Assembly (NCBI GenBank): GCA_008632985.1
Contig: QPGO01000010.1
Span: 806,001-870,000, forward strand
DNA length: 64,000 nucleotides
Origin: Psammoneis japonica
Taxonomy: Eukaryota
Direction of reading: 5' to 3'
Below are positions 2 through 64,000 of this stretch, piece after piece; position 1 is the first letter of the stretch, and each line of letters starts with the position of its first letter. Both the position numbers and the translations under genes were made by a program. The notes beneath the pieces were generated by a model. That model saw only the letters and a list, made by a program, of their open reading frames with translations, was not told the origin of the DNA and did no database searches.

Positions 2-1456
2 GCCGAACTCAACAAGCTGGAGACATGGGCCACCGACATTGGCAATGCCTGCCTTGAAGCCACCACCAAGGAGAAGCTTTACATTGTAGCTGGACCCGAA
101 TTTGGCAAACTCGAAGGACACATCCTTGTCATCCACAAGGCACTGCATGGACTGCGCAGCTCCGGTCTCCGCTGGCACGAGCGCTTCGCCGACTGCCTGC
201 GAGCTGAAGGCTTCTTCCCCTGCCGCGCCGAACCCGACATTTGGATGCGCAGGAACGGCGACCACTGTGAACACATTGCCGTTTATGTGGATGACCTCGC
301 CATTGCCATGAAGGACCCTCAATCTTTCGTCGACACTCTCACGGAAAAGTGCAAGTTCAAGCTCAAGGGTGCGGGACCCATTGAGTTCCATCTGGGTTGC
401 GACTTTTCCCGGGACCCCGACGGAACCTTGTGCCTGTCTCCGCGCAAGTACATCGAGCGCATGGTCGACAGTTACGCCCAACTGTTTGGGGAGAAACCTG
501 CCACCAATGCCCTGTCACCTCTAGAGAAGGGTGACCACCCCGAACTGGACACTTCCAAACTGCTGGGACCCGATGGCATTCACAAGTTCCAGTCTCTTGT
601 TGGTTCACTCCAATGGGCAGTGTCCCTTGGTCGAATTGACATTACCACGGCTGTCATGTCACTCTCTAGCTTCCGAGCTGCGCCCCGTCAAGGCCACTTG
701 GATCGTGCCAAACGCGTCTGTGGGTGCCTCTCCAAGATGCGACACGGTGCTCTCCGCGTTCGCACGGAAGAGCCCGACCATTCGGATCTCCCTGCTCCGG
801 CCTATGAATGGATGCATTCCGTGTGTGGTGAAGCAGAAGAGATGATCCCGAAGGACGCTCCACCGCCCCTTGGCAAGTTCGTCACTACCACCCGCTGCGT
901 TGATGCAAACTTGTGCCATTGCATGCTCACCGGACGCTCTGTCATGGGAATGCTCCACTTCCTCAACAAATTCCCGGCTGATTGGTTCTCCAAGAAACAA
1001 GCCACCGTGGAGACTGCAACCTACGGATCTGAATTTGTTGCCGCAAGGAATTGTGTTGAGCAGATTGTCGACCTGCACATCACCCTGCGCTGCCTTGGCG
1101 TCCCGATCCGCAATGTTGGTTGCATGTTCGGTGACAACAAGTCGGTTGTAGACAGTGCCACCATCCCGCACTCCAAGTTACACAAGCGACACACCGCACT
1201 ATCGTTCCACCATGTGCGTGAGGCAATTGCCTCTGGTTGCCTTGAGCTCCACTTCATCGAAGGCTCCCGCAACCCTGCTGACATTCTCAGCAAGCATTGG
1301 GGTTACTCCCAAATCTGGGACCTTCTCCGCCCCCTCATGTTCTGGAACTTCATTCCATCCGAAGTCGAATCTGTTTCTGTGGCTCCTCAAGCAAACTGGG
1401 GAGTGACAGGATTTGAACAGGATTTGGATGCGCGCGAAGTGTCGCGCGCTGTTTAG
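2..1456 (+). CDS. pol: Copia pol fragment (reverse transcriptase + RNase H), open from the window edge, with many apparent Tyr->Cys/His changes
   Basis: Frame from nt 2 reads WATDIGNACL...KALHGLRSSG...IAVYVDDL...VDAN...TGRSV...WFSKKQATVETATYGSEFVAA...GDNKSV...NPADILSK, the copia RT/RNaseH motif series. Confidence 0.92.
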   Translation, partial: AELNKLETWATDIGNACLEATTKEKLYIVAGPEFGKLEGHILVIHKALHGLRSSGLRWHERFADCLRAEGFFPCRAEPDIWMRRNGDHCEHIAVYVDDLAIAMKDPQSFVDTLTEKCKFKLKGAGPIEFHLGCDFSRDPDGTLCLSPRKYIERMVDSYAQLFGEKPATNALSPLEKGDHPELDTSKLLGPDGIHKFQSLVGSLQWAVSLGRIDITTAVMSLSSFRAAPRQGHLDRAKRVCGCLSKMRHGALRVRTEEPDHSDLPAPAYEWMHSVCGEAEEMIPKDAPPPLGKFVTTTRCVDANLCHCMLTGRSVMGMLHFLNKFPADWFSKKQATVETATYGSEFVAARNCVEQIVDLHITLRCLGVPIRNVGCMFGDNKSVVDSATIPHSKLHKRHTALSFHHVREAIASGCLELHFIEGSRNPADILSKHWGYSQIWDLLRPLMFWNFIPSEVESVSVAPQANWGVTGFEQDLDAREVSRAV

Positions 1457-1680
1457 TTTACCGCGCACAGTTTTGTGTGCTTTAGTTCCGCGCGTTCACG
1501 CGCGATGTAGTTTGCTTTCGAGCCACAAGGCTCACAAGAATAAACAACAGTAGCCCGATTGTACCGACTCACACGTCTCTCGGCTCCTGCAACGGTCTCT
1601 GAGCGGAGACTCATCTGCTGTTTAGACAGCAGTAAGGAGTTGTTGTTTGAATTCTTGCCATTTGCCTTCATTTTCTGTCA
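1404..1680 (+). repeat. Putative 3' LTR (277 bp)
   Basis: Starts TGACAGGA directly after the PPT and ends TTCTGTCA (7/8 inverted repeat); contains AATAAA. Confidence 0.7.
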
Positions 1681-3500
1681 TTTCACATGATCCCTTTGGA
1701 CGATTTGGAGATTGCCCTCTCTGTCCCTCTCTCCACTTGCTCTGTGGCACAATCCTTTTGCTGTGGGCATGTCTGTGCTGCAGTCAGGTTGGCTGTGGCA
1801 CAAACCACGAGGAACCCCCAACTCAGAGTTTTGGGGCACCAGCCAGTCCCTGAAAACTCTGCTGGAGAATGGCAGCAGCTCCAGAGAGAGCTGCAAGGGC
1901 TGGGGGTGGTCGTGTGGTGGGGCTTGATTCCAAACTCTGCACTCTCTCACCTGAATGTGAGCAGTGCCAGCAAGAAAAAAAGTTGACAGGGGTGGAGCAG
2001 TGCTGGCTGCACTGTTGTCTGGGGCAGGGCTCTGTGTGGCCAGCAGCAGCACACACCCTGCCTTTGCCGTCTCCTTTGTTTGTTTGTGCACCATGCCATC
2101 TTTCCACATCTGCCTGCCTGTGACCTTCCATTCAGTCTGTCCATCTGGCGCAGCACAGGCAGAGCCTGAAAATGATTTTTTTGCTCTGTCCACCACAGTG
2201 CACTGTCTCATGGTGCGCAACTTCTCCTCCTCCTGCACAAATGCAAGCCTTGCCATGCTCTGGCAGCCTGCCTCCTGTTTTCACAACAGCTGGCCCAGCA
2301 CTGCTGTGAAGCAGAGCACACAGCTGCACCAACACACACAATGGGTCCACAACTGGGTGCTCAGTGATGGGGCCAATGTGGTGCGCAAAAGAATTTTGAC
2401 TCAAGCTCTGACAAAGACAGAAGGACAGACAGACACAGTGGGAAAACTGGCTGGGCTGCTTGCCATGGACAGAGGACCAGCAGCTCTCCCTCTCAAGAAC
2501 CACAGGTTTTGTCAGCCAGCCACAAAATGTCAAACAACAGCACCTGCTCACATTTGCTGCAAGTTCAATGACAGCAGCCTTTGCATCTTGACCAAAGAGC
2601 CACAAAGTGCAGCAGTGAATGAACAGCACTCTTTGCAACCTGGCAGCAGCCTTCTTGGACAACCTTCAGCCTGTTGCTCTCCAAGAGCTCTCTTGAGCTG
2701 TGAGCTTGGCAAGAAAATTGGTGAGTTGAAAAGGAGATAACTCTCCACCTTTTTTGTCAAAACAAACTCATTGCCATGGAGCCAGAGCTGGCACCACTCA
2801 ACAAAGAAGCACTTGGTGTGTGCAGCTGGCAGTGTGGTGGTGGTCAGCTCCCCCAGGTGCAGCACACCTTGACCATTTTGAACATTTGGGCACAAACAAT
2901 GGAGGTCCCCAAGAGATTTTGAGACATGTTGCTGAGAACTGGGACAACTTTTTGAAGCATCCTCTTCAAAGGCAAACTCATGCAAAGTGCACGTGGGGCA
3001 GCTCAATGCCCAGCTTGTTCAAGCAAGGGTCAAGCACATGACAGAGCCAGCTGCACTCAATGCTGATGGCCACAAGATGTCCACCACCAGCAGGGAAAAT
3101 TGTGCAGAATTTGAGTCCAAGTCTGGCTTGCAGTGGAAGAGACTTGCAAAACTGGCATCAAGCCACAACTCAAGATCCACCAAGAAGCTCAAGGGAGATG
3201 AGAACATGCCTTGATCATCCCATGTTCACAGGCATTAAATGACAGTCTTTTGACATGCTGGTGGCAGCATGCAACAACTGCTTTTGACTCAAGGTGAGCT
3301 GCAAAGCTTGGGTGACAGCAAGTGATGTGACACTCAGGGTGAGTGCAGGCAGACAAATGTGACAATGTTTCACTGATGTGAGGGCAGCTCAATGCTTGAT
3401 CAGGATTGCTTCCATTTTCCATTTCCTGTGCCTCCAGTGCCACCCACCCACCATCACCTTGAACACAAAGGCTTTGTCTTCAAGCACACACAGCTGCAGA
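1681..3500. other. TpA- and CpG-depleted degenerate repeat-like domain
   Basis: About 2-3 TA and roughly 10 CG in 1.8 kb; TG/CA-rich; only spurious Cys/His-rich ORFs. Confidence 0.8.
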
Positions 3501-3985
3501 GGTGTGACTTACATCAGAAACACACGAGCGGTTGGACCAATGAGAAATTCAAAATGGTCAAATGCTCGCTGTCCGTTGCGACAAAATTCATTGAATTTAG
3601 TTGCACCTGCAGCCGTCATTTTCATGCCCACTCTCTCTGGCTAGCCAGCGGACCCTCTCTAGAGGTCCCTGCTGTACAGGCGATCCGATGACTATTGCCT
3701 TCGCCAGCTTGAAATTTCTTTCTTTGAACAAATCAACTGGCAGAACTAAGCATACATCTAGAAGGATGATTTCCTCCAGCACAGATGCGAAGCACTCAAA
3801 GAAGGTACTGAGCCTGCGTAATGCATCCGTCTTATACTTTATATTTTTTATCTCCCTAAGTATTACTCAAAGACTTATCTCTAGAGGCTGTTAATCCCTG
3901 TTGGTGCAACAACTGCACGCAGTTAGCCCTGACGGTGGCATGGTAAGCCACGTCCGTTTTCTGTTCTGCTCAATAGAAGGGTCCA

Positions 3986-18779: not shown

Positions 18780-21509
18780 GTTCAAATGTTGCAACAGTAT
18801 ATTAACAACAACCGCCATGAGCACTGGCACTGGGCACTGAGCACTGAGATACCATAGGGCCCTAGTACATGATGAATGCTGAGGATGGACAGACGGCATG
18901 CAAGGGCGAACTCGCTCGCTCGCTCGCGTCGCTCGCTCATTCACTGCGATGCTGGCTGCTCGCTGTGGTAGACTAGCCCCACGCAAGCTACAGGACAGTT
19001 TTGGCTGCTGTTTTAGCATGTACAGCAGGGCCCTACATGCCCTAGAGTGGCTGTGCTTGGCCTGTTGTCTTGCCGATGATGTGACAGGAACCGATTCAAT
19101 GTCTGCCATGATGGTCGCAGGGTCTTTTGTTGCAAAGATGCTCGCAAGTCGATCACGTGAAATGACAGCAGAGCAACACGGCAATCAAGAAAGGGTGGCC
19201 GCCCAACACCCACCAAAAACTTCCAAGCACGTTGTGATGACCACACTTTTTTGAGCTGCTTCCACTGTCCCCACCTCTTTTTGCTGTCCTCAATCCTTTC
19301 ATCTTGTTTGCGTTGTCCCTCATTTCCTCTTCCCTGGAATTTGCACTCTCTGACGATTCTCTGGTTTCCAGTGAGTGCTGCATCTTCTTTCTCCAGTGAG
19401 CTGGTCTTGTTTGTGCTGGCTGTTTCCTTCACCACTGTTGTTTGCAGCTCCAGTGGGGAGTGTCATGTTCTTTGCCAATTGCCCCATCCACAACAATGGG
19501 TGGGGCATTTCCCATGACTGCTGTGTGCAGTGCCCAGCATTGTCTCCACCGCCACATCTTGTGCGCAGCAGTTTCCATCTGCTCTGCTGCATCCACCCCT
19601 GTCACTGCTGTCTGAGCATTGCCATCTGCCACATCCACTGCTTCCACTTCTTCTTTTTTCACCATGTGTCAGCAGCAGCTGCCTCAGTCATGTTGATCAC
19701 AACACTGCAGTCTGCGGCCGGCGAACTTGTGTTTTTTGTCAATCTCCATTGCAGCAGCAACTGCTGCCATGTTGCTCCTGCAAGGCAACACTGATGTGAG
19801 AAAGAGCAGCACACATGCCATGTGCCGCCAACCACTGATTTTGTGCTCACCTTCCCCTGGAGCATTGCCGCTCTCAGCATCGTGCCCGCAGCTTGTGTTG
19901 CTGTCTTTTTCTGGCTTTTCCACCACGTTGGCCATCAGTTGACACCTCACTTCTTCCAGCTGCTTGGTGCTTGTGTCTTGTTCACACTGTTGCTCCATGA
20001 CCATCATGCGTGCTGTTGTCAGTGCGGCCATGGAATTCTTGTGAATCTTTTTCACCAAATGGGCGTCATCACCCAATCCTGAAAATGCATTGTGCAACAG
20101 TTCTGGCACTTGTCACATGCAGATGGGTTCCATGGCATGGCATGGCATGACATGCCAGTTGAGCACCTGCTTGCTTCTGCCACACACCTTGTCCAACAGA
20201 CCCTGCTTGACTGAATTTGCAATCCCGGAAAAACAACCAGCTTTGTGTGTGCTGCCATCTTTGCCTGGCACAACCATGATTTGAAAGTTGTTTTGTTTCA
20301 TGTGGGCCTTTTGCACCCCCACTGTCAGTGTCTTGCATGACTTGGCTTGGCCCACCATGTGTTGCACCTGCTTGAAAAATCTTGCTGCAGCTCCTGCACA
20401 GTCATCTGCCTTGATGATGCAGGTTGCTGTCCATCATGAATGCTGCCTTGAGACTCTTGAAATTCAACACAGGTGTCCCATCATCCATGTTCTTCACACC
20501 AGATTTGTCAGCAATCACAGGCATGATTGCACGCCACGCACTGTTGAGCTGGCGACAGTTCTTGCAGCATGCCTCAATTGTTGCTTTCTCTTGATTCTGC
20601 TCCTCTTCTGCAACCACTTGCTGGTGCATGGTGTCACACACCCAAGACACATTTTGGCCAGCATTGCATTTTGGCCTGGATTTCACACAACTTCTTGGTG
20701 TGAACTTTGTGGTGTTGTTCTGTGCTGTGGGTGTTGCACTGTGGCAATGGGAAGCAGCAAAGAATTCTCCCACATCCCCCTGGGGAGACTCAGCCAGTGG
20801 ATGGAGATTGCGCTGCCATGGACGTGGGAACATGGTGGCTCGTCATTTCCACAGAGTGCTTTCCTGTGCACTGCTTGAAGACAACAGCACATGCGCACAA
20901 TGTGGCGACAATGTGAGAACACCCCTTGCCATCTGTTGCCAGTTTGGGGGCAATGACATGTTTGCAACATTTGTGACTTGACAATGTGCAGCTGCATTTT
21001 GTGCTCATGCTCACCCGCCACATTGTTTTGCGTGTGTTCCTTGCAGACACTGTCTCTGTGTTGTTGTTGTGGGCTGCCCTGCAAGCAATTTTGTTTTGAG
21101 GTCATTGCCATTTTTTTGTGTGACGTTTGAAATGCTGTGGCTGTCATTGCGCTCTGTGGTCACAGCGCAATTTCTGTGCATCCTCAGCCCCTTCTGATGC
21201 ACCGCCCAGGCACCGTGCAAATGTTGCTCAAAGAAATGTTGTTTTTTGTTGCCACAGTTTCTTGACTCATTTCACAGGCACACTTTCACATTGATGTGGC
21301 ACTTTGAATTTTTTGTTTGATCATCTCACACTCAAAGCCACCGTTGTGGCACCAGCCCAAATGGCCAAAAAATGTGGTCCCGTGCTGACCACATTTGGCA
21401 ATGACCCCAGTGACCACATCACATTGCATCGCAGTGCACCTCTGTTCTTGTCCACAATGCAGCCACAGGCAGCAGGGTTTTCCCTTGCACTCAGCTGCCA
21501 TTTGTGATG

Positions 21510-21512
<3 letters not shown>

Positions 21513-21598
<86 letters not shown>
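21513..21598. repeat. (TG)43 microsatellite
   Basis: Perfect dinucleotide run. Confidence 0.97.
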
Positions 21599-21600
<2 letters not shown>

Positions 21601-22942
21601 ACATCATGCATTGTTGTCATGCCATTGTCTGGAGCAAAAATCCAGCTCAAATGCAGAGAGGCAAAAAGCACTGGAGTGCCTTGACCCAATCACAAAGCCT
21701 TGATGACTCAATTTGTGATGGAAGTGGCAATGGAACAATCAACGTGGCAACAAACAAAACACAGCAAGGTTTGGCACAGGGTTGGCAGAGATTTCTTGGG
21801 ACAAAAACCTCTCCCACCTTGAGCTTTTGAGAAGGAAGGACACTTTTCTTGTGGCCATCACCAACAACGCAGCTGCAGAAGATCCTTCTGACAACGCATC
21901 AGAAATTGTGCACCTGATGCCACACAGGGGGGGTGCCAAAATGCCACACAGGAAAGCGCGGTTTGCTGCAAAACAACAGCTCATTTCGCAGATGATTGCA
22001 ACGCCGGGGGGGGGGGGGGGCAATGTGAATGACTTGCCAATGGAGCGTGCATCAGATTTTGTGTCATTTGGTGAGGATGCCATTGGGTGCAAGAATGACA
22101 TTTAAACTGCTTGAGTGGGCAGTCATGAAAATGAAGATGCGCCAGCAGCGTGTGATGAGCCCACATCGGTGCCAACAATCTTGTTGATGATGGTCATGAT
22201 GAGTCCAAAAGAACAAACCCACAAGGTCAGGGAAAAAATGGATGGAGACATTTTAGAAGAAGAAACGTCCTTGGGCAACAAAGAGACGTCAAAACTGGAA
22301 ACACCCAACAATGAGTGAAACCAAAAAATGTCAAGAAACCTTCCCAAAAAGTGCAAGCCAGAACACATGTGAAATGTTTTGATGCTGGGGATGGCACACT
22401 CACCTCTCAATTCATCCACTCCCATTGAAAGCGCAAAGGAGGCAATGCTGGAGACAAAAGGCTTAAAAAATGTGGGCAGGGATGCAGTGAGAGGTTTCTT
22501 GCAACCAAACAACCTGTTTGGTTGATGTTTTCATGGCATCCAATTGTGGCAAACAAGGGCAATGTCAACTCTCCACAACACATGGATGCACATTTTGGTG
22601 GCCTCCATCATTTGGAAATTGGACAGCCTCTCAGATGCCAAATGAGCTCCAGTTTTGAACAGACAGCATGGGGCCCTTGCAACTCACCACCATTTTGGCT
22701 CAGTGAACACTTGGTGCAAGGCGATGTTTTCAAACACAGCATTGTTGGATTTGGACATGCCAGCAGGGCACCACTCCTGAAGGACAATGGGTCAATCATC
22801 CTTCCATTTGACAAAGAGGTGGCCACCCAAAATCTCAGCATGAAGCACCTGTGTTGTTTGCATTGCAACGCTGTGCATTTGAGAGAATCCAAGTTGCCAG
22901 GAAAGAACAATCTGTTGAGATGAATGCAGAGATTGGACCCAG

Positions 22943-23393
22943 TGCAGCATGCATGCAGACAAAAGGTTGTTTTTGTCACGCCCTTTGTGACATTTAAAGG
23001 CTGCAACACGTCGCCGTGACACATTGACTCTTGTCAGCAGCTGTGTGTTGCACTCCTCCCCATGCATCGCGCGTCCATGCGGCTCTTTACCAACGTGCAC
23101 TGACACTGCACGGTTTTGGCGGAACAGTGTGGGTGCGCACGAAGGAACACACAGAACTGCACAAAGTTTTGCGCGTTCGACAGTGATCAACGTTGCTGCA
23201 GACAACTCCCACTCAGGGTTTCGAACCCCTGGCCTCCTGCCCAATGGTTGCGATGAACCACTCCGCTGTGAATTCATTCATGATGCAGCATGCATGCAGA
23301 CAAAAGGTCATTTTTGTCACACCCTTTGTGACATTTAAAGGCTGCAACACGTCGCTGTGATGCATTGACTCTCATTGGCAGCTGCACATTGCA
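22943..23393 (-). mobile_element. Non-autonomous miniature LTR retrotransposon (TRIM), 451 bp
   Basis: 110-bp TG...CA direct repeats at 22943-23052 and 23284-23393; 4-bp TSD CCAG (22939-22942, 23394-23397); minus-strand PPT GGGGAGGAG abutting the LTR at 23053-23061. Confidence 0.85.
23203..23276 (-). other. tRNA-derived segment (Pol III A/B boxes) inside the TRIM
   Basis: Minus strand CAGCGGAGTGGTT (A box if CA<-TA) and, about 30 nt later, CAGGGGTTCGAAACCCTG (T-arm/B box hairpin); anticodon arm not recognisable. Confidence 0.5.
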
Positions 23394-25749
23394 CCAGTGC
23401 TTTTTTGTGAAGTTTTTGACAAGAACAACCAACCAGAGTTGCCAACTTGTTGTGCTGCAACTCAGCAGATGTTGCTGCAGAAATCTAAACTTGGTCAACA
23501 TGTGAAGAAGGAACAGGCCAAAAAAATGCTGGACACTGAATCTGTTTGCATTGCACAGCTGTGAAAGAAGCCAAAACCTCTTTCAACAAGCAAGACAAAG
23601 AAACAGCATGGCTGCAAGTCCAGAACACCAGCCAATGAGGAGAACATGGGGCTGCAACGAGCAAATGTGAGTCCAGTCATTCATCACTGGTGACGAGTCA
23701 CAATGACTCACAATGCATGCACCCCTCATCTTTCCAATGTGCCTTTCCTTGTCACCAACCATCTTCCAATGAAATGCTTTGCCAATGATGCACAACCAAG
23801 CACATTGTTGATCCCCCTCCCCCGCTTGCATTTGTGGTTGAATCACAGGAATTTTTGTGACAGTGCTGCTGTGTCCATCAACAACTCTTGCACTGGTTTA
23901 GAAGATGAAAGCAAGATGTGCTGTTTGCAATGAAAAACTGAGTGAGCACTCATGGAATGAGGCGCACAGCCCAAACAGGGAAACTTTGGTTGCCATGAAC
24001 AAGGAGATTGACAAAGAGATCTGGAGCTCCTTTGGCGCCATTGATGCAGGCTGGGTGACAACATTGTGCTCCGCAAATGCAATCAGCATGGCCTTGTCCC
24101 TCTGCAACAGAATTTGCACATCAATGATGCAACCCACTCCATTTCAAGATGCATCTCCAAACTTGCATGCATTGAAAAGCACCCAGACAGAGCTGCACAT
24201 TGTCAGTTTGGCACGCACAACTCAACTCAGCAGCACACAGCAACCACAGCACAAGAATTTTGCAGACTCACATGTGTTTGACAACGCCCAAGGAATTGGT
24301 GCTCACAAGAGATTGCAGTCATCTAGAAAACCGAGACAATCCATCACTGCCAACTGTGGTCAATGTGGACTCTGTTCTTGCCAGCAATGGAAAGCGATTG
24401 CTGGAAGAGCTCTGTTCCATCATGATGAAGTGGAGCACCCCACCAAGACTCAAGGAACACTTGCATCACCAACTTGTTGTTCTCCAGTCAGTGTGCCCAG
24501 TCTCTTGAGTGCACAAACTTGCCAATGAAGGGGAAAATGAAAGCAAAAGACAGCATCAACAAGCTGAGTTTGGATGTCCAATCAGCTCTTGCAGAAGCGC
24601 CACAGTCCACACATGTTGCTCTTGCCAACATGACAGGGAAAGGAATGGCATGTTCAAGGATCATTGGGTGCCAAAGGACCCACTGTGCTTGGAAGAACAA
24701 CAAGATTTTGAGAAGGCACTCAGCACAGGAAGGAGCAGAGGTTGTGTCAGAGCATTGTTTTGAGATGCTTGCCATGAACATGACTTGTGTTCTTGGTGAG
24801 GAATGGGGGGGCACATTGTGGAAGAAATGCACAGCTGCAATTGATTGCAAGGCAGGCTGTGGCACAACAATTGATGTGCCCAAGGTGGACACAACCACGC
24901 AACCTCATTTCACTGGTTTGAGAACAATGATCTCTGCGATGATGACAAAACAAATCAGATGGTTGAGTTGCTGGAAAAAAGGCACAAACAGTTGGCAGAG
25001 AGTGATGCCACAGAAGAAAAATGAAGGGAACATTTTTTGTGGGTGAGGAGGGAATCACAAAATTCTTGCTTGGGCTGCTGTGTTTTTTTCAAATGCACAA
25101 AGGAACATTTGTTTTTGAAACAATGGTGGATGCCAAGAACTTTGCACTGCACCTTGCAGCAGTGGGCAGCTGATTTTGGTGTTTCTGGCTAACAATGGTT
25201 TTTCAATCACAGTCAAGTTTTCAAGAAATCAGTTTTTAGACCACTTTCTCACCCTCCATGAGGTGCACAAGATGCATCCTTCCCTGTGCACAGCAAACTG
25301 TGCAACTTGGAAGCAAAGCACACAAGCCACAATTTGAAAGAAAGAAAAAGCAAGCACTTGAAATGGCACAGCTTCACCAGCAACAAATCATTGCAGAGCA
25401 CATTCTGATGTCATCTCTTCAGTGGTGGGCAATCATCACTGGGTTTTGGAGTTTGATTTGGGGGCCACTGGCTTTTGGCATTGGGCTTTCTGTTGGAGTT
25501 TCCAAAGAGTGCCGCTCTGGATTCCAAGTCACTTCACATGCATCACAGAGCAAACAAAGTGGCTGCCCTGTTTCCATGCTCATCCCAGCTGCCATGCAGG
25601 TTTCCCAAGTGGCTTTTTTGCAGCAACCAAAAAGGGTTGGTGTTCATGAGTGCACAACAAGCAACACAAGATTTTTAGAAATGGTCAACCCAACTTGTTG
25701 AATGAACTGAGGTGACAGGTGACAAGCAGCATGCTGCTGCTCATTCCCA

Positions 25750-27800
25750 GTGCCATTCACCATGCAAGTCAGGTGCATGAGCCATTGGGTCCAATCACAC
25801 TCCATTCAGTCAGACCCAACAACAATGCGGCATGCCAGAAGAGCTGGTGGGTCAGCCACCTCATGCACAAATTCTCCACTTTTGTCAAGGAGAGGCAAGA
25901 AGAACATGCATTCCCTCACAAGACTTGGGTTGTTCTTGAGATTTTCCCACTTGTCTGTGGAAAATTGCATTGCATGATTGAGTCCAAGGCACTTGGCACC
26001 AACACGAGTGGTCATTCGGTGCAGTTGGAAAACAACCTGGTGCATGTCACACTTGCAACAAGGAGCTGTGTTAGACTCAACCAATGCAGTGATGAGATTT
26101 CTGTTTTTGTGCAAGAGTCCTCCACAACCGCCCCAGCCATCAAATTGCCATTTGCCACAGCTTCTTGGAGAAAGCAGCATTGCATTCCCACATGCAGCAT
26201 TGGTCATCAAGCTTTCTGACAGGCTGTGGTTCTTCAACATGGAAGTGTGTTTGCAGCACACTGAGAATGCAAAAATTGATGATCATTTCCTGCTGACAGC
26301 AACCACCCTTCATGCAGCATTGTTGGAACAACTGGCTTGAGGTGGCACAGAAATCCCTCCACCCTGCCACTCCCTTCCCAGCACAAATGCAAGGGACCAA
26401 AAATGCTGGGTGCATTTGGAAGATTTAGAAGAGACAGGAAATTGTTCTTGCCTGTGAAAAAGCAGTCTTTGGTGACTGTTCTTGGCTTGTCATCAAGCAC
26501 ACAGAGCAAAGTGACAAGAACATTTTGATTTGCTGGTCCATCTCTTTCACAATCTCTGGTGTCATCTGGTTGGCTGGCTCTGGTTCCCAGTGCACTTCAT
26601 GCTCCATGTCTGCCAGGCAAAGCAGTGCCTCTCAAACAACTGATCTGCCCTCTGAGTTTGCTGTTGCTGTGCTTCTTGCACTTTGACCATGGACAGCAAA
26701 ACTTCTGAGCCTTGGGCAAAGTTGTTGCCAAACCTGCAACAGAAGGCAGAGTGCATGTGTTGCAACCTCAACCAGTGTCTGACAAAATCCTTCATGGTTG
26801 TCTTCACAATGCCTGGAATCTGCCAGAAGATGCACCATGATGTTGAGGAAAATGAATGTGTCAATGCCCAAATTCCCATGGAATGTGGCACAAGTCACCC
26901 ATGCCATCAGCATCAACACAGTTTGCAAGGTGGTTGATCTCATCACCGCTGAATGAACAATCCTTCAAAAACATTTTTGTGGTCTCTGTTGTCCACTCCT
27001 CTGATGAACACAAGTCTTTGTGGTGATCTCTGCTGCCTCACTGAACAAGTTGAAGTTTTGCATGTAAATGGACTTTTGCAGATCATTCCCTGGGTCAGAT
27101 GCAGCTGATGCTGGATGTGAAGATGGTGTGCTGCGATCAAGCAGGGAAGCACCAGGACCATCCATGTCACAATCAGCACAGGAGCCGTTGGGGCAAGGCA
27201 CATTTAGACCATCAAGATGTCTCTCTCTGCTTGGAGTGGAGTGTGCATGTTGCCAACAAGCAACTGTGAAAGCAGGAGGTGTGAGTTGAAGATGAGAGCC
27301 TTGCTTGGGACAGTCTTGCAACATGGCAAGCAGCTCTGCTGCTGCTTGAACCATGGTGCCAGTCTTGTGACAGCAAAGTTGGTGAGGATTGCTTGGGTCA
27401 CACAATTGGTTGAGTTCATCATGGAAGCAACCCCACATCAGCTGATGGCCAGTCCTTTTGTTGCCAAGAGAAAACAAAAATGAGTTGTTGTTGGTCTGCA
27501 ATCAACCATCACAACTTCAGCATGCATTGAAGTGAGGCTCAATTGTTGGAAAGGGTGTGTGTCATCTGCCCACACAAACACTGGGAGAACTGGCACAGCT
27601 GATGGGGTGCCACTCAGTTGAGTGGCAGCAACAATTTGCTGTGCTTGCTCAGTCTGACAGATGGAGCTGGTTGCACTGTCCTCTGCTTTCTCCACCGGCA
27701 CAATGAGTGGTTCAATGTTGCGTGACAGTCCAAGCACACATGAGACAGCATCTGAAACAAAGAGTGGCATGCATGCCCATGCATGTCAATGCCAACAGGT
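25750..27800 (-). pseudogene. Decayed CMC/EnSpm(Plavaka)-like DNA transposase
   Basis: Ordered remnant motifs across frames: VFVWADD, LQDCPK, GIVKT, NFLSLLNLP...FGPLHLCWEG...EGF...KP; boundaries approximate. Confidence 0.5.
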
Positions 27801-29234
27801 GTTGGCAGATCAGCGCACATGCTGGCCCACTTGCCCCCCAGAGTGCATGAGCATGCACCTCTTATGATGTTGGTGAGTGCAGGGTGTGTGCAGACCATTG
27901 TGTCTGTTTCAGGCAGATTTGTGATGCTGCAGATGAAGCTGCTGGGTGGCCAATGCAAATGAGATGATGGAAGGAGCTGCACCATCATGGCTGGCTTCAT
28001 CATCTGATGAATGTTGCAACAATGACAGCAAATCATGCTGGTCATCTTAACTTGCTGGAGTGACCAGGCCACCAAATGTTCAACTTTGCTGCCCAAGTCT
28101 CCACTTGAATTGCCAACAAATCATGCCATGGGAGCACCCTCAATGTGAGAAAACAACAAGGGATCATCATGCATGAGCACAAATGGGGCAGGAGAAGAGC
28201 TGGCATCTTGGGTCACCAAGAGCCAATGGGTGGCATTCATGCCAAAAAAACCTGGAGGAACAGAGCCAACATTGTTGCCATCTTGTGAGGGGCCATTGAA
28301 TGATGAAAAATCACCATCTTTGAATGAAGCAGGGGAGGCAACAACTGTGCTGGCTGAAGCAAGAGCAGGGTGGGTGCAGCAGTGGCAATTTTCATTGTGG
28401 CAGAGGAGAGCACATTGCTGAGACCTTGAGTGAAAGCAACCCACAACTGGTTTGCAAAACTGTTGGCATGAGTCACAAGCAAGTGTGGCAAAAACACCAA
28501 GCAGATGTGGTGCGTCCCCCACAAAGAAAATGAAGAAACCAGGGAAAATCGCCAAACCCGCCAAGGTGCACTTCCCACTGGTGTCTGCCACATGTGTGCT
28601 GCAATTGGGACAATCTTCAAAATAATTTGGTGCATTGTGACTGCCAAGGCCCAGCAAAGTGCAGGAGAAACAGTTGGCATGAGCGACAGCCCAGAAGGTG
28701 GAGCGCCAGCATGCCACTAAGATCAGCATCAGAGCACGATGCCATCATGTGCATCACAGCAAAACACAGTGTCAGCCAGCAGTCCAGTGAGTTGGACACA
28801 TTGTGGGGTGCACTGGCAGCACAAATGGAAGATGTGTTTTCAAAGGGTTGCAGTGTGTGCATCACAGGCAACGGGGGTGAGGAAGCAGCAGGTCACGAGC
28901 TCCTCGCTGCAGGCAGGGGGGGTGAGTGGGGGAAGACTCTGATCCAGATGAGGGGCACACCACTGGTGTGGGGGAACAAGTGACATTTGTTGCTGGTGTG
29001 TGGGGAATGAATTTACTGGCAGGGCCCATTGCAGGTAAAATGCCAGAAATAAGAAATGAACACTGTAACAGGAGAGGGAACCAGCAATGGCGCATGCATG
29101 CAATAAGTTTGGTGGCGGAAAGCACGCGCGCTTGTATCCGGTAAGACCGCGCCCACAAAAAACTTGCCTCAGCCCTCATACCGTAGCCCTCCAGCATCAG
29201 CAACAAAAAACATTGAATAGGCCAACCGGTGTAT

Positions 29235-29521
29235 GAAAAGAACCCACAATGGCGGTCGTTGACTGTGACCATGCGTGACCACGTGGTCACGCTCGCGTGA
29301 CCGCCGTGACCACGTGGTCACGAACGATTGAGAAACGGTCCTCAGAAGAAGTTTTCAAACGGAGCGCAAAACGTGACAAACGCATCTGCTCGAACCATAT
29401 GAACGCATCTGCTCGAACCATGAAAAAACTCGATGTTGCCACACACTGCCCGTTACCACAAGTCATTCATTGACAACTGAAATGGTCAAGATCGAATCCC
29501 AGCGCCAAAGGGAATGCAGGA
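29235..29521 (+). repeat. Direct duplicate of 30587-30857 (upstream region + first ~13 codons of the 30818 ORF)
   Basis: Near-identical from GAAAAGAACCCACAATGG to GGGAATGCAGGA, with an internal ~22-bp re-duplication. Confidence 0.9.
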
Positions 29522-29726
29522 TCCTCCCTACCGTGACAGAATGAGCTGTTCCTTACGTACAGTAGACGCAGCAGTTGTCGCTACCTGCCGCTCAGTCCAT
29601 TCATTGTAATGAATTGGACGGATTTGGGAGAATGTTGGCACTGCAAAGACTAAACTAAATTTATGTTTATGAGTATGAACGCAAATCGCTAAAAGCCATG
29701 CCACGATGATTAGGAATAACTAAGTA

Positions 29727-29851: not shown

Positions 29852-30625
29852 GCTTTTAGAGTTTGAGAGAGACAGAGAATTCGACAAACAAGGATTGTCT
29901 TGGACGGCTCTTGGTTTTACGCCCCGCAATCGTTGTTTAAATTATGTTGGTCCTTCGAGCTAAACAACCGAACGCACCCAATACCGTTGAGGCATCAATT
30001 TCAATCCTGAGTTTTTAAAATGACTGCAAGAGGAAAACACAACTTTGGTGAGCTTCTCTTGAAGTGTTCCCGCGTCAAGGATGAGGTACATTGGAAGCGG
30101 CGTCCGTAGTCGGCGGTTCGGCTTCCACGGGGTAGTGCTTCTTTGAGCTGCTTGCAAAGCTCGGTCTGGAGCTTTTTATCCTTCCAGAGTTCGCTGCTGC
30201 TATTCTTGAGACGATCAGCCTTGATTCCACGAAGTTTCGCCGACTAAACAGGCAATTTGGATCCCGCGGGCAACGAAAGCAGAGTGCGCCCTGCACTGCG
30301 AACACCGTCGACGATGGCATCACGTACACCGTTTTCTGGCAAGCTGCTTCCCCTGCCACTCGTAGAAGGCGTAATTGTTCGAGTGTTAGGCGTTGCACAC
30401 ATTGTAGCGGAAAATACGGAAGCCCCGGGAGCCGTCTAAAATTGCCATCGTCATCGGCATCAAATTCGGGCGAAAAAAATTGAAAATTGAAAATATCGTA
30501 CCTCTAACGCACAGACAGACAGAAGTACAGTACCCTACAACTACCAGTAGAGCACACTGTATTTTGTGTATTGATTTACTCGCAACGAAAAGAACCCACA
30601 ATGGCGGTCGTTGACTGTGACCATG

Positions 30626-30674
30626 CGTGACCACGTGGTCACGCTGCGTTTTCCAGCGTGACCACGTGGTCACG
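30626..30674. repeat. Nested palindrome: 21-bp perfect inverted repeat whose arms each contain the 18-bp palindrome CGTGACCACGTGGTCACG
   Basis: CGTGACCACGTGGTCACGCTG-cgttttc-CAGCGTGACCACGTGGTCACG. Confidence 0.9.
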
Positions 30675-30817
30675 TGGTCACAAACGAGTGAGAAACGGTC
30701 CTCAGAAGAAGTTTTCAAACGGAGCGCAACACCTGACAAACGTATCTGCTCGAACCATGAAAAACTCGATGTTGCCACAAACTGCCCGTTACCACAAGTC
30801 ATTCATTGACAACTACA

Positions 30818-37967: not shown

Positions 37968-38149
37968 GAGCCACTGATGTTGATTTTGTGATGGGTGATA
38001 GGTGTGATGATGTGATGGAACAAAAACAATAATCCAAAACACGTGGTGTCACTTGTACCACGGCCTCACGTAGATCCTACTTCCTTCGTACATCTTGGTA
38101 GACAATTTACGAGGAATGATCCATTGTCGGTCGACGATCAGACTAGCTA

Positions 38150-41100
38150 CAGCTTTCCCTGCAACCAACCTAAACGTCGTATTAATCCTACGTTACTGGT
38201 AGGAAAATTTATTTTTCATACAAAAAGCCACAGTAAAATCGCCAGCAGCGTTATATTTAAATCTTATCTATATTCTAGAGTTTTTTATTTACCTACAAAA
38301 AATATCTTTTCACCCCGCGAAAAGCGTCCTCACAATGAAACCCTTGTCAAAATCAATCGCACTGCGGTGCGTTTTGAACTCTTTGACAAGCTTTTCAATG
38401 GTCTCAAGAGACAAGGCTTCATGATGAACCTCTTGAGACACATCAGGTTGTGAAAGAACCATGTAAGCACAAATGCATCGTCGTGCTCGTCGCGAGAACT
38501 TTCGCATCCTGTCAGTCGTGAGTGCGCTTGATGACATTGATTCTCGTACCAACTCTCTAAAGTTTTGCTTTCCCCTCTTTCTTGACAAAGGTTGCAAACG
38601 ATAATGCTGCTTTGCCAGTCCCCAAGAACATTCAATGCCCTCCCCAGCCATTTCTGGGTGACACTTTGGCGTTCTGTCAATGGTCACACCCATTTTGCGA
38701 CCCATGGTTTGCAACAACGTCTCTTCGTTGACGAAATCATCGCAAGCAGCCATCAAGTGAAGAAGAGATGTTGACTTATTGATCTCTCCATCTTTGCCCT
38801 TTGCACCATCCACAGTGCATTTTCCAGGGTTGTTGGGATCAATCCATCCTCGCTCACACAAAATTTGCTTTGGTCCTTTCGGCTTGTTGACCCATCCGTG
38901 CTTCACCTTTTGAATGGTTTCTTCGACAGGTGTGTTGTTGCTCTTTGCCATGTCAATCAATTCATCCTTTTTCTTGCCCCTGATGTTCTTGATGTTCTTT
39001 TGTAGAAGCTTGTCAAAAATTTCATCACGCAGGAACTTCCGAGTTTCAGTTTGACCCTCGACAGGTGCGTCACATTTCTCAGCTTCTCGTTCTTCCGGCG
39101 TCATCCAGCATGGTCCCTGGTCTTCCTCACTGAATGCCATTGTTTGCACTTGTCCTGCAGACAACATGCCAACTGCTTCAGCATGAGGACCTGGAAAGCC
39201 CTCTTCCTGAAGAATCTCAGTGGGATGCATCTTGTTCTGACTGCCGCCGACTCCTGCGTTCATCGTGCGCTTGTTGCAGATTAGTCCGTCTGCTCTCTGC
39301 TTGTCGTGCCCGCAAGAATGATCAAAAAGGAAATGACAGTCAAATTGAGGATGCAGCACTTTCAAGCAATCCACGCAATCCTCCAATCGCACCAACATGT
39401 GGTTGTAATTCCAGCATCCGTCGCCATTCGCTCCACACTTGAACTCACGGATGAACGGACTTTTCTTCAACTTCGGCTCACGCTGCTTCTTGCTGAACAC
39501 TGTTTCTGCAGCTTCTTCATCAGTGTGGCATTTGCCTGCTCGAGTTTCATTCATCTCTCGGAGTTGCTCTTCCGAAATGTCTCCATCTCGAACAAGGCCG
39601 ACCTCTCGACATTGAAATGCAGACTGCATCACGCCTTCTCCATCATCTTTGGGCAGCAGCGGCCGCTCACCTTTGGGACCCGACCAGCTGCTTGTGCTCA
39701 GCAAGCATTGCTTAAAAACAGCCTCGTCCTGTCCAAATGTCATGACAGGCTTTACATTCGGATCCTTTCTCACACTTTCACTTCCTCCAAATTGCACGGA
39801 CAGCTTGGGCGCAAGGCTTGGATGCTCCGGGTCGATGACAGTGTCGACATGACACTCGACAAAATCTTCTCCATCAACTTGGCATTCATGCCCTGTTTTT
39901 GCTGGGAGAGCTTCAGCTTTGACAATGTCCATGGCAGTGGCTTTTGGAAGTTGCATCCAACGTGGGCATCGTTCTTCCATCATCAAGTGTCGACGGACCA
40001 TCGCATTCCGACACCTCACATTGTCGGGACGTTCATGATTGTCAACACAATGCATCTTTTTGTTTGGTCCATGCCGGAAACCAAATAGATTCATCCAGTT
40101 GGAAACTGCATTGGAAGAAATGCACAGTTGGTTTTCCCCGGTGAGCAATCCATGCTGATTCAGGAACTCCCGTTCCGACTCCAAGATGTCTTCCCTGTTC
40201 TTGCGACGGTCATTGTTCTCTCTCTTTAAGAATTCCGGGACAAGCACTTCGTGGAAGTGGTCTGTGGCCACCTCAGTGGAAAGTCGAGAAAGGTTTGCTG
40301 TCACAAACTCAATGAATTTCCTCTTCATCTTTGGATGTGCTTCAAATGTCGGTGGGTCTCCTTTTCCTTTTGGTCGGGGATGAGGAAAGGAGCTGAGATT
40401 CCTAAAGATGCGACACCAAGCAGCTGCGGTTTGGCGACTTTTTACAAAGTTAACACCTGCACCGCTGAGGTCATTGATTGCATGCTGACAGCAGTCAAGC
40501 CATGCAGTGTTCCTTTTTGGCAGCTTCTTCAACACATGGTCAAGCGCCATCGCAAGATGCTGGCATCTCAATCGAATCACATGAGCGTCGTTGGGTGTGC
40601 ACAGGTTGTCAGGGTCGCCTCCTTCGATCACTTCTTTCCATCCATCATGAAAAGCAAATCTAGAAGTCAATTTGTCTGTCTGTTTCTCAATTGCCTTTTT
40701 TGCATCCTCTCCATCATCTGCATTGAACAGGTTCCGCACGGTCATGTCATCCTAGAAGGCGCCAACAACAGCGGTCAAATCATCGGCAGGCATGGCATCA
40801 TTCTCAGGAGTGTCATCTTCATCAGCACCACCATCATTGGATGATTTCTCCTCTGTTGCAGAGGACTCTAGCAGTTCTTTCCTTTTCTTTTTCTTTCGCT
40901 CGTTTTCCTGCAACGTCTGTGTGCACTCGTTTGCGTCACACCCCACTGTTCTCTTGCTGGAGCCGGCTCGAGTTTCTACTTTCTTGTTGTGCTCTTCAAC
41001 AGTCAACATCACACGCCTGAGATCATTGATTGTTGAGGGCACATGCCTTGGCAATTCTTGCTCTTTGCAGGAACAGTGAGCCACAACAGACGGCTCTCCC

Positions 41101-41595
41101 TTCGGTCGGAACTGCTTTCGGAAAACCCCGCCATGGTTCTCAGACGTGTCCTTGTCAATGTCTGGAAATGGAGATCCAACTCTGCTCAAAGCACTGTTCA
41201 ACTTCTTGGCATTGAAGTTCAAATCTTTGTCAATTGTGTGGGCCTCTTTTGTCACATGCACAAAACAGTTCGCCTCGATCCATCTGCATTGGAACTTCGG
41301 CATCTTGAACGCATCCCTGAAATGCGAAGTGACAATGCCAGTCGGTGTCGACCGAGACGCTCTGATCGCATTGCCTTGTGACATTTTGATGGGTGTTTGC
41401 TGTCAAGCTGTGCAGGGGGATCAGAGAGGACTCAGCAGCAAAACCACAAAAAACGCCGATTCCACCAGCGCCATTGTCTCGTGCTTTTTCTCGTGCTTCA
41501 AGATTGTTGCGATGACGTCAAAGCGGACACGTCACAAAAATCTGGCATGTCCTGCACAAATTCTACGGCGTTTAGGTTGGTTGCAGGGAAAGCTG
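38150..41595 (-). mobile_element. IS630/Tc1/mariner-like DNA transposon, 3446 bp, full length
   Basis: 32-bp TIRs CAGCTTTCCCTGCAACCAACCTAAACG(T/C)CGTA at 38150-38181 and 41564-41595 (1 mismatch); TA at 38148-38149 on the left flank, CA at 41596-41597 on the right. Confidence 0.9.
38310..41384 (-). pseudogene. DDE transposase (~1024 codons) with one in-frame TAG at 40752-40754 and severe Tyr depletion
   Basis: The 210-aa and 811-aa ORFs share a frame; VDNHERPD, GQDE, FLFDHSCGH, TPKCHPEMAGEGIE.SWG, KTHR motifs; only 3 Tyr in 811 aa. Confidence 0.85.
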
Positions 41596-42172
41596 CAGAG
41601 AAGTGCGTGCGCGCAGTCAGTGGCACGCAAAGACACAGCAGACATCTTCGAATTTTGCCAGAGTGAGGCAGGAAGGCTTGAAGCATCCTCCCACTGCAAA
41701 TGCGTTTGAGACAGGGAGGAAGACTTGTGAACTAGAATGACACACAACTGCAACATCCATCTCTTCTACTGGCAGCTCCACCACCGTCCGTCATGTGCGG
41801 CAAAAAATTGTGAGGGTTTACGGTTGCGGGTTTCGATTTAGAGGATTTCAAAAAAGCTGAGTCTGAGTCAGTCGACTCGGGATTCAACAAACCCCGCTTC
41901 CCTTTCAATCTTGTGACGGCGTTCTGCTCAGGTTTGACAAGACCGAATCCAAGACTGAGTATATTCAAATCTTCATTTTCATAGACCATTTGGCGGGAAT
42001 TCCATCAATTTTACATACGGATTCAAAATATTTCATTATCGTTGAAGAACACGAGCACTCTATTTGAGTTGGGAATTTTTGTTATGTTTAACTAAATAGT
42101 TGAATGTAGATATTAATTTTATTATGCTGAAAAATTGGAATGGCCCGGTTTTTGTAATCATCAACTTCTAAT

Positions 42173-48343: not shown

Positions 48344-48519
48344 GGTTGTGCGGATAAAAGTAACTCCTGAGTCACGTGGTTACTAATCCACTCCCGCATC
48401 TTGAATAGCCGCTGTCGCCATTGTATCTCGTAGAAATCAACTTTTGAAGCGAAGCGGGAATCAGAATAAGGCTGTTACGCTTTCTAATTTCTTTTTTTCT
48501 AAGCAATAAGGCAGGCAGA

Positions 48520-48880
48520 TAGTCTACTGTAGCTACTCTACTCTAGCTACTACTCTAGCTAGAGTAGCTAGAGAGCACCGGTAGCTACTACTCTCTACTC
48601 TCTAGAGCTACTAGTCTAGCTCTAGCTAGTAGAGAGTAGCTAGCTACTGAAGCGCAGCGCAGATAGATAGGCCGGCTGCGGATCTAATCTACCGCGCTCT
48701 CTCTAGCTAGAGAGGAGCTAGCTAGCTAGAGTAGAGAAGTAGCTGGAGATACCGGTAACCAGTAACTCTAGTCTACTCTCTAGAGTAGAGGGCCCTCTAG
48801 CTAGAGTCTCTCTAGAGTAGAGAGGGTCTCGAGAAGTAGAGCTACATCCCTCTCCAGTAGCCCTAACTCTCTAGAGCTGT
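48520..48880. repeat. CTAG/AGCT/CTCT/GTAG-rich quasi-palindromic low-complexity tract
   Basis: Built almost entirely from CTAG, TAG/CTA and AGAG/CTCT words, with no fixed period. Confidence 0.85.
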
Positions 48881-61944: not shown

Positions 61945-62249
61945 GGTTGCTCACAATTCCATCCGGTCATCAAAAAAAAATGAGCTGCGCGTCGCAGCAT
62001 GATTTGTTGATGATCGGCTTTGTATAAAATATAATAATGGCATATTATTTTATACGGATCCATGCAATTATGTTTTTGCCAATATTTGGGTTGATTTTCA
62101 TTCTTTATATTCGGGTGATACATCTCGTTATACTCTCGACGGTTACACGGTGCACTCGACTTGATCGATTCAGATTTCGAACAAGAGTTCGGGTCCATCT
62201 CAGCAGTCAGCTTGCATGGTCATGTTGTGACGTCTCTCCTCTCTATCGC

Positions 62250-64000
62250 TCGAACATTCGATCGAATCGATGGAATGTCGTGTCCAGGCCACGGGCCAGG
62301 CAGGAGGTTTTCCTGCAGTGCTCGACTCTCGTCATGAACGTGCCTTGCACTTCTCACCCAAAAGAGCAAACAGAGAAAGATCGCAGCAGAGTGAGAAAAA
62401 AGCCACAAAAAAGAAAAAACAACCCAATGACAATGCTGCACTCTCTCTTTTTCCTTTCCCAATCTCTCTGTGCTCTGGCTTTGCTTGCCTGCTCTTGGTG
62501 CTGCCATGCTTGGGTGCAATGGGAACTGCCTCAGCTGGAGCCAGCAGCCCGCAGAGAAATCTTGTGCATGGACAATGAACAAAAAAGGAGAAAAACTGGC
62601 CAACTCAACAAAAGCACGGCCCTTGTGAGATGTGCCTTTGACTTTCAAGTGCAGGTGGTGCCTCCCAACTTGCTTTGTGGCTGGCTTTGCCTTGTGCCAC
62701 ATTGTCTGTGCTTTTGATGACCCCACCCCCAGTGGCTTGTGCAGCAGCTGTGGTTTTTGTCAACTCACCTGTTTTCTTGCTGACATTTTTGACATTGACA
62801 CACTTTGCCAAACACCTTGCCAACCCAAATTGCCAGCTGCTGCATCTGCCAATTTACAAGCAGAGGAGCTGCTGGCTGCTGCTGTTTGTGCCAGCATTCT
62901 TGAGAGTGTTTTGCACTGCTGCTGGGGCTCCATTCCTGCTGCAGCTGCTGCTGCTCAGCATGTGCTGCCCACCAGTGCCTGTGGCAATGGGTGGTGGGGA
63001 TGATGAGATGATGTGCCAGAACAAGTGGGGCCTTCTTGTCACATCTTTTGTGCAGTGGTTTCTCAGCCTTCTTGTCCTGGCGGCACCTGTTTGTGTGTGT
63101 GGGAAGCATGAAGCACAAAGCATCACACAGGGGGCAAAGGTGCAGGGCAAGCTCCTGTCCATCCACGATCTTGCTTTTGAGGCCTTTTGCTTCTCTTTGG
63201 GACACTGATTTGGTGCCATGTGATGTGCTGTGCACTGCGTTTTGCTGCCAACAAGAAGAGCAAAAATTAAAATGAAATCTCCAAAAAAGAGATCTTCTCA
63301 TCCTCTCCCTCCCTCTCCACATGCAAAAATTTGCTTGCAACAAGGAGTGCTGAGGGCTGGAACAGCACACCATCTTGCTGCTGCAGGGAGCAAAGCTCTT
63401 TTTTTCTTTCCCAAAAAAAGGAAGCATGCACAAGAGAGAACTCCCCACAAAAAGTGAGAGTTTCTTGCTTTTTTTTGAGGGGGGGGGTTCATCTCAAGCA
63501 ACAAGTGTGCCACCCAAGAAAATGTGCAAGTGTGTGCAAATGTGCAGATCTGTGTCTTTTGGCTGCCTGCCACCTGGGCACCAAATCTCAATCTTTCTTG
63601 TCAAAGCTTGAAGGGGGGGGGGCTGGGATCATGTGCTTCTTCTCAAACTGTCACAACATTTCTCAGCACCCACGAGATGGCTCAGCCATCATTGTGACCT
63701 TGTGGCAGCCAGAGCAAGAACTGTGCAGCAGAGTGGCAGCAATTGATCTGATGTGATCTTGCTTGTTGTGTTCTTTTGGCAATGTGAAGAGGAGCACTTG
63801 CAGGCAGCTGGCTTGTGTTTGATTTTGGACAGAGCAAAAAATCGGCACAGCAGGTTTCCTCTCTGCAACTGTGGAAAAAGCCCCAAAAGAACAAAAATGT
63901 GCCAAAAATGCAAACTTTGCCACTGCATCTGTGCCATGTGTCAAATTTGGCCACACATTTCAGCTCCATGCTTTTGCCTTGGTGCTTGCTTCAGAGGTCT
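62250..64000. other. TpA- and CpG-depleted degenerate repeat-like domain (runs off the window)
   Basis: About 2 TA in 1750 bp; TG/CA-rich. Confidence 0.8.

Follow-up and report, generated by a model that had tools for sequence, protein, structure and literature searches.

The closest described counterpart to the locus analysed here comes from the chlorarachniophyte Bigelowiella natans, where mutation-accumulation lines acquired 231 mutations in two integrated viral regions, one of a giant virus and one of a virophage, and 230 of these were TpA-sited A>G or T>C transitions, at a rate of ~6e-7 (Mettrop et al., bioRxiv 10.64898/2026.01.13.699255). As far as its available text goes, the same preprint describes TpA-poor, CpA- and TpG-rich clusters of several kb in the B. 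natans genome, finds reverse transcriptase (RT) and DDE domains over-represented in its TpA-poor coding sequences and puts forward an ADAT2-like candidate enzyme; that text makes no mention of diatoms, CpG, retrotransposons or tyrosine (bioRxiv 10.64898/2026.01.13.699255). Here we describe a stretch of 64,000 nucleotides (the window) from the diatom Psammoneis japonica (assembly GCA_008632985.1, contig QPGO01000010.1, positions 806,001 to 870,000, forward strand), which opens within the pol gene of a Ty1/copia long terminal repeat (LTR) retrotransposon. This copia copy bears a signature of loss at TpA that is specific to the dinucleotide, takes both strand outcomes, is restricted to transposons and differs at the same sites from copy to copy. 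We consider it likely that the copy is a non-functional member of a high-copy family in the diatom nuclear genome and was hit, as integrated DNA, by a TpA-specific mutation process. A diatom with transposon targets is a new case of a phenomenon described only once, in the 2026 preprint; no report of TpA-specific hypermutation in diatoms was found in the literature searched, subscription journals and preprint supplements lying outside its scope.

The likeness to B. natans, to judge from the available preprint text, lies in the restriction of A>G and T>C changes to TpA, yielding TpG and CpA, in the confinement to foreign or selfish DNA and in the multi-kb TpA-poor clusters, and the enrichment of RT and DDE domains there parallels the diatom targets, a copia RT and a probable DDE transposase. 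The two cases differ in host (a diatom, and so a stramenopile, as against a rhizarian) and in target (a very high-copy LTR retrotransposon and a transposon as against a giant-virus and virophage insert). The fully converted diatom blocks have moreover lost CpG, which that text does not discuss, and the replacement of Tyr by Cys or His serves here as a read-out, whereas tyrosine goes unmentioned in it. Fungal repeat-induced point mutation (RIP) of ascomycetes is alike in that each transposon copy is separately loaded with context-specific transitions on either strand, recognizable afterwards as a dinucleotide footprint. RIP converts C>T, mainly at CpA, and so creates TpA. Membership in RIP was considered and rejected: in the diatom TpA is depleted, CpA and TpG are enriched and the ancestral state is TpA, the opposite direction. 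Dependence on repeats is likewise not evident here, block A (Table 1) being single-copy. ADAR hyper-editing of double-stranded RNA and APOBEC3 action on retroviral complementary DNA (cDNA) also leave clustered transitions in selfish or viral sequences; these enzymes act on RNA or single-stranded cDNA, whereas here DNA that is not a retroelement was hit and both strand outcomes are seen.

Only the 3' end of the element lies inside the window. The translation of its open reading frame (ORF) matches the Pfam copia-type reverse transcriptase RVT_2 (PF07727; 6e-17, 62 bits, cut-off 31.6) and contains the YVDD box, while the scoring of 8000 candidates yielded 2681 homologs at E <= 0.001. In the alignment the best 120 of these 2681 are 54-68% identical (top matches 65-69%), and the named entries among the 120 listed are from the diatom Cylindrotheca. 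By the RVT_2 match, YVDD and the diatom copia polyprotein relatives the element is a Ty1/copia LTR retrotransposon, in agreement with an earlier note on this DNA, which had read the ORF as copia pol caught in mid-conversion, with conserved Tyr turned to Cys or His. It is CoDi-like, CoDi being the name that the note uses for diatom copia elements. The ORF holds 16 TpA (observed/expected, o/e, 0.23) and 90 CpG (o/e 0.80), with TG at 1.53 and CA at 1.25, and its G+C content is 0.56 against 0.49 for the whole window. No further pol copies were found within the 64-kb window.

At the protein level the losses are concentrated on tyrosine. The window ORF was aligned with the 120 relatives and a column was called conserved at at least 80% agreement. 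In the 25 columns where Tyr is commonest, the residue counts of the window are Cys 10, His 5, Phe 3 and Tyr 7; in the 14 of these that are conserved, they are Cys 6, His 2, Phe 1 and Tyr 5. Over all conserved columns 29 of 265 are changed, 9 of them Tyr and the rest non-Tyr (20/251), and each non-Tyr residue type is retained at 64-100%. The comparison that the earlier note had proposed, Tyr to Cys or His against all other changes, thus gives 8/14 versus 20/251 (Fisher's test, p = 1.1e-5). Active relatives carrying Cys or His at the same sites were named there as the contrary observation; of the 120 relatives, 0 or 1 carries it at each of the 8 columns. Ten of the 17 Cys residues of the window protein fall on Tyr-majority columns. 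Each of the ten short motifs quoted in that note is present as written in the translation, and the sites it gave as Tyr are all Tyr-majority, although five of them (in EKCKF, the first Cys of RVCGCL, PDHSD, the second Cys of CVDANLCH and GCMFGDN) have Tyr in a mere majority of relatives (47-90 of 120) and are not near-invariant.

The codons fit a change at TpA. All Tyr codons are TAY (Y, either pyrimidine), so that a TpA change gives Cys (TGY) or His (CAY), and the Cys and His codons at the Tyr columns read TGY and CAY. Among the non-Tyr replacements, T124A, I200V and S373G lie directly behind a T-final codon and I317M is encoded by ATG, as the same rule requires. Since the 120 relatives carry Tyr, this residue is ancestral at the changed columns; together with the confinement of the excess to TpA in DNA (below), this bears out the direction Tyr to Cys or His that had been proposed.

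For the DNA-level comparison we used 80 related metagenome loci, with codons anchored on window residues by tblastn, and took as ancestral the majority base (at least 60%) of 76 loci, the window and three TpA-poor loci being excluded. Of 20 inferable ancestral TpA, 8 have become TpG (A>G) and 3 CpA (T>C), 2 show transversions and 7 are retained, so that both strand outcomes expected of TAY to TGY and TAY to CAY are present. Non-TpA A/T sites of the window show transitions at 12/176 (6.8%), which is indistinguishable from the pool of 76 loci (899/13446, 6.7%), where TpA itself stands at 128/~1555 (8%). The difference between TpA (11/20) and non-TpA sites (12/176) in the window has p = 4e-7: the transition excess is confined to TpA, other A/T sites being at background, which excludes a general AT-to-GC drift. 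The copia ORF has 0.011 TA per base; 77 relatives average 0.051 and none falls below 0.029. Conserved CpG have changed at 2 of 15 sites. A runs test on the order of TG and CA gave no sign of strand-coordinated tracts in elements or blocks, with z of -2.1 to +0.7 for them versus -5.4 to -0.05 for host sequence.

Further copies in the same organism differ from the window at the very sites concerned. Contigs of sequencing runs X1-X4 were placed on the window at 80% likeness. Their summed depth is 63,000-535,000 over bases 1-1680 and 56-84 over 2041-3600; summed depth is not a copy number, yet it shows that the copia family is very abundant and its flank single-copy. In X1, 94 places vary (transversions at 16, A>G at 23, T>C at 24, G>A at 18, C>T at 13); 40 of them are listed, 32 of these within 1-1680. 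Sorted by context, with the pairs 779/780 and 1117/1118 treated as single dinucleotides, the 32 comprise 18 places with TA versus TG or CA, 6 with TG or CA in the window and CG in other copies, 1 CAC>CGC specific to the window and 7 others. The Tyr codon at 779-780 reads CAT in the window and TGT in 62% of the depth, and at 1117-1118 the window has TG where other copies have CA. Conversely, TA survives in the window at 9 of the listed places (87, 474, 523, 644, 804, 1023, 1201, 1305 and 1633), although TG or CA makes up 52-95% of the depth there. Such differences extend into the 3' region (1561, 1570 and 1633). They point to conversion of the same ancestral TpA either way in different copies, as copy-by-copy mutation predicts. 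With 7 of 20 TpA left and other copies reading TA where the window has TG or CA, and vice versa, the description of the element as caught in mid-conversion is a fair one. At the 6 listed CpG places the window has TG or CA where 49-99% of the other copies' depth reads CG; with the 2 of 15 conserved sites, these show that CpG decay has begun in copia. The earlier note had also judged the element free of general decay, and CpG is indeed mostly kept and the ORF open; this judgement has to be softened by the CpG decay already under way and by the nature of the changes, for A to G and T to C transitions cannot create a stop codon and an open frame is therefore no evidence against decay or for function.

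The non-coding 3' end has 8 TA in 224 bases (o/e 0.56). At its boundary the summed contig depth is 535258 in bin 1561-1680 and 277 in bin 1681-1800, and contigs have loose ends at 1680, past which other copies run on with partly common letters (agreement 0.98-1 for X2-X4, 0.52 for X1). Since the other copies continue with common sequence, this copy may be truncated or interrupted at 1680 instead of reaching a natural LTR end.

The signature recurs in other copia lineages. Across the 80 metagenome loci the o/e of TpA in pol is 0.49-1.13 in 76, with one locus between 0.24 and 0.49. L052 has an o/e of 0.01 (3 TA in 2766 bases; CG o/e 0.44) and L072 of 0.16 (TA o/e 0.13), and in each of them 14/20 ancestral TpA are converted. 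The protein P0062 has Cys or His at 7/18 Tyr columns, while 19 of the 120 relatives have a single such column and 99 lack any. Identity between these mutated sequences and their nearest neighbours is 60-74%; the neighbours are non-depleted except for that of L052 (P0062, itself mutated), so that several copia lineages are affected. Mutated copies are under-sampled among the 80 loci because the scan patterns contained Tyr, which makes 3 TpA-poor loci in 80 a minimum.

Table 1. Features of the window. Strand is given as + or - (a dot where none applies), and figures in brackets are o/e ratios.
Feature	Position	Strand	Remarks
Ty1/copia pol ORF, 3' part	2..1456	+	484 aa; open at window start; stop codon 1454-1456
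Non-coding 3' end of copia (3' untranslated region/LTR region)	1457..1680	+	Similarity to other copies stops at 1680
Second, unrelated transposon	38304..41732	-	813-codon ORF 38313-40751 (minus strand); same signature
Block A, adjoins copia	1681..3597	.	3 TA (0.03), 13 CG (0.10); TG 1.88, CA 1.81
Block B, 10 kb	19044..29013	.	20 TA (0.03), 115 CG (0.20); TG 1.93, CA 1.92
Block C, runs off window end	62245..64000	.	2 TA (0.02), 18 CG (0.17); TG 1.81, CA 1.63

A second element of the window repeats the pattern independently of copia. In the ORF of the second transposon, 11 of 14 conserved Tyr are changed (7 to Cys, 4 to His) as against 10/163 other conserved columns (p = 1e-9), and several of those 10 are themselves TpA changes (T215A, I345V and K425E after T; L520P as CCA). 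Tyr makes up 3 of its 813 residues (0.4%) versus 3.9% in relatives, and the ORF is depleted of TpA with most CpG kept (TA o/e 0.10, CG 0.71). The protein has 47 homologs in a family of ~1000 aa, among them one named a transposase by the Joint Genome Institute (JGI) and one from Fragilaria crotonensis, and a protein atlas match offers a lead to a DDE_3-type transposase. Pfam found no domain in the ORF and, in 8 relatives searched at E up to 1, no meaningful match. The element is flanked by a 35-base inverted match (94%; 38147-38181 and 41564-41598), which may represent its ends as putative terminal inverted repeats. The segment 38056-38303, which overlaps the left inverted match, is TA-rich and not TpA-depleted.

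Host genes provide the control. Long uninterrupted ORFs in the window encode PaO/Rieske, BRAP2-like, Ldh_2, leucine-rich repeat (LRR), 3'-5' exonuclease and DUF6824 proteins. For the BRAP2-like gene, six relatives are named among the 120 listed, all diatoms at 44-52% identity (Seminavis, two Nitzschia, Phaeodactylum, a Bacillariaceae metagenome-assembled genome and Mayamaea), which puts the host among the diatoms and apart from Bigelowiella; the gene keeps 10/10 conserved Tyr although 32/272 conserved columns differ. Host regions of the window have a TA o/e of 0.59 and a CG o/e of 0.97. By this one aligned host gene, and by a TA o/e of 0.59 versus 0.02-0.23, the process is restricted to selfish DNA and the host is spared. 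An alternative genetic code was also considered and discarded, since conserved Tyr are encoded by TAY in the host genes of the window. Two 500-base bins (48501-49000 and 52001-52500), which flank the LRR-protein ORFs, hold 69 TpA each, ~4x the local norm.

Blocks A, B and C are almost free of both TpA and CpG, and the positions of TA give them sharp edges. Block A is single-copy (depth 56-84 in bins 2041-3600), one contig covering 2385-3600 with 0 differences. Held against the B. natans cluster cut-offs, block B lies within both; A and C lie within both ratios and have less than 3 kb in the window; and the copia ORF lies within the TpA limit (0.23), the average of its TG (1.53) and CA (1.25) falling below 1.52. 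The blocks contain many long ORFs because they lack TAA and TAG. Pfam gave nothing above cut-off for 13 long ORFs, two of them from the transposon block at 38.3-41.4 kb; a self-BLAST of the window found the blocks unlike each other and unlike both elements; and no terminal repeats of block B were found in 18.5-29.5 kb. A perfect (TG)43 microsatellite lies within block B at 21513-21599, and just past its right edge there is a direct repeat of ~290 bases with 83% identity (29235-29524 and 30587-30860).

The loss of CpG calls for separate consideration. Diatom transposons carry 5-methylcytosine (5mC) (Hoguin et al., 2023, PMC9998398, in the part available), and decay of methylated CpG would account for CpG to TpG or CpA at the 6 listed copia places and for the near-total loss of CpG in blocks A-C. 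It differs from the process considered here in that it cannot remove TpA or alter Tyr codons, and in copia TpA loss is far ahead of CpG loss (11/20 versus 2/15 conserved sites).

In the mechanism that we favour, TpA would become TpG, or CpA when the change falls on the opposite strand, and TpA across codon borders or in ATA, CTA and GTA codons would be altered likewise. Since such transitions cannot create stops, the frame would stay open though the protein is ruined. The process would be aimed at selfish or silenced DNA, sparing adjoining host genes, and would convert TpA faster than CpG is lost, so that young targets (copia and the second transposon) would have lost TpA and kept CpG, while old targets (the three blocks) would have been driven to a common sink of TG and CA, the end state of the process combined with 5mC-driven CpG decay. 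It probably acts in place on double-stranded DNA and is probably enzymatic, through adenine deamination at TpA or through a thymine modification that mispairs; TpA being its own complement, deamination of A and modification of T give identical sequence changes. By analogy it would be the same kind of process as in B. natans.

Several points weigh against this account. The diatom process is known from its footprint alone, whereas in B. natans a rate was measured. That the blocks are old targets of the same process is something we infer; block A is single-copy, and among their 108 stop-to-stop ORFs of at least 75 aa none passes the curated Pfam cut-off, the 3 sub-threshold rows being at chance level. 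The loss of CpG may be unrelated to the TpA process, the available text of the B. natans preprint being silent on CpG. Runs X1-X4 come from a single sample, which probably also yielded the assembly, and give no independent support, and part of the variation among copies could be inherited subfamily differences instead of independent events. The ancestral state is drawn from relatives 55-74% identical and is secure only at conserved codon positions 1 and 2 (20 TpA). Finally, the window has transitions of its own outside TpA, at 894 (CAC>CGC) and 1247 (TTC>CTC). The first replaces His by Arg beside a converted Tyr, and nearly all of the other copies' depth has the ancestral base; the second replaces Phe by Leu, and 70% of the other copies' depth retains the ancestral base.

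Among other explanations the one that survives best, though we hold it unlikely, places the change before or during integration, through ADAR-like A-to-I RNA editing with its 5' U preference or through deamination of cDNA (as APOBEC3 does for C), so that insertions would be born mutated. Copia is a many-copy retrotransposon, differences among copies are expected under pre-integration editing too, and ADAR-type enzymes prefer U before the edited A, according to the Discussion in the available preprint text (bioRxiv 10.64898/2026.01.13.699255). The two coding-strand outcomes (8 A>G and 3 T>C in copia; 7 Cys and 4 His in the second element) would nevertheless require two different single-stranded substrates. 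To our knowledge ADARs occur only in animals. Moreover, the second element resembles a DNA transposon (from the atlas DDE_3, JGI transposase and 35-base inverted match leads), the single-copy, non-retroelement block A is fully converted, and the B. natans mutations arose in integrated DNA during culture, as the available text states (bioRxiv 10.64898/2026.01.13.699255).

Far less probable is that, instead of a dead copy having mutated, an active element has been selected or codon-adapted to avoid TA, for instance so as to escape UA-cleaving nucleases or spurious signals. TA is scarce in host coding regions too (o/e 0.38-0.73), and the metagenome locus L044 (pol at 3-1211) does look as if selection had kept its Tyr, with a TA o/e of 0.24 and only 3 of its 18 conserved TpA changed; L044 may belong to an element that is still selected in a host under the same mutation pressure. 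In the window, by comparison, Tyr is replaced where 116-120 of 120 relatives have it (positions 17, 49, 89, 91, 242, 275 and 364), which functional selection would not do, and the unrelated second protein shows the same loss while the host control keeps its 10/10 Tyr. A general pressure from AT to GC, such as GC-biased gene conversion among copies with Tyr prominent by chance, would fit the higher G+C of the copia ORF (0.56 versus 0.49) and some I>V and K>R changes, and is hardly credible against background transitions at non-TpA A/T sites (12/176 versus 6.7% in the 76 loci), the retention of conserved Lys (12/13), Asn (6/6), Met (3/3) and Phe (10/11) and an I>V change that follows T. Systematic miscalling of a modified base in TpA (or CpG) is just as implausible: modified bases can give such miscalls on some platforms and the library type of X1-X4 is not on record, but X1 contigs match 2385-3600 with 0 differences at a k-mer depth of ~61, which needs accurate reads, unrelated metagenome assemblies have the same signature (L052, L072 and P0062), and the B. 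natans data are Illumina, as the available text gives it (bioRxiv 10.64898/2026.01.13.699255).

In-place mutation of integrated DNA at TpA remains our preferred reading. A wider proposal, which we put forward tentatively and as possible rather than probable, is that diatoms defend their genomes much as RIP does but with the chemistry reversed: an enzyme would act on the A (or the T) of TpA in transposons and other silenced inserts, on either strand and in each copy separately. As a rhizarian alga has the same signature, this defence would belong to an old and widespread system of the SAR lineages (stramenopiles, alveolates and rhizarians) and would not be peculiar to one species. Combined with 5mC-driven CpG loss it would drive both self-complementary pyrimidine-purine steps to TG and CA, and blocks free of TA and CG, hence also of TAA and TAG stops, would be fossils of former invaders.

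If the preferred reading is true, TpA hypermutation extends to diatoms, foremost in importance among marine primary producers, and to a second eukaryotic supergroup, and the search for the enzyme is narrowed to genes common to diatoms and Bigelowiella. With hundreds of copies at various stages, the copia family would amount to a natural replicate series from which rates, rules of context and the order in which TpA and CpG are lost could be read, and the change of Tyr to Cys or His in a frame that stays open is a simple protein-level read-out. For annotation it carries the warning that a long open frame found in such a region does not speak for function, and, if the interpretation is true, kilobase blocks free of TA and CG could flag former invaders across algal genomes.

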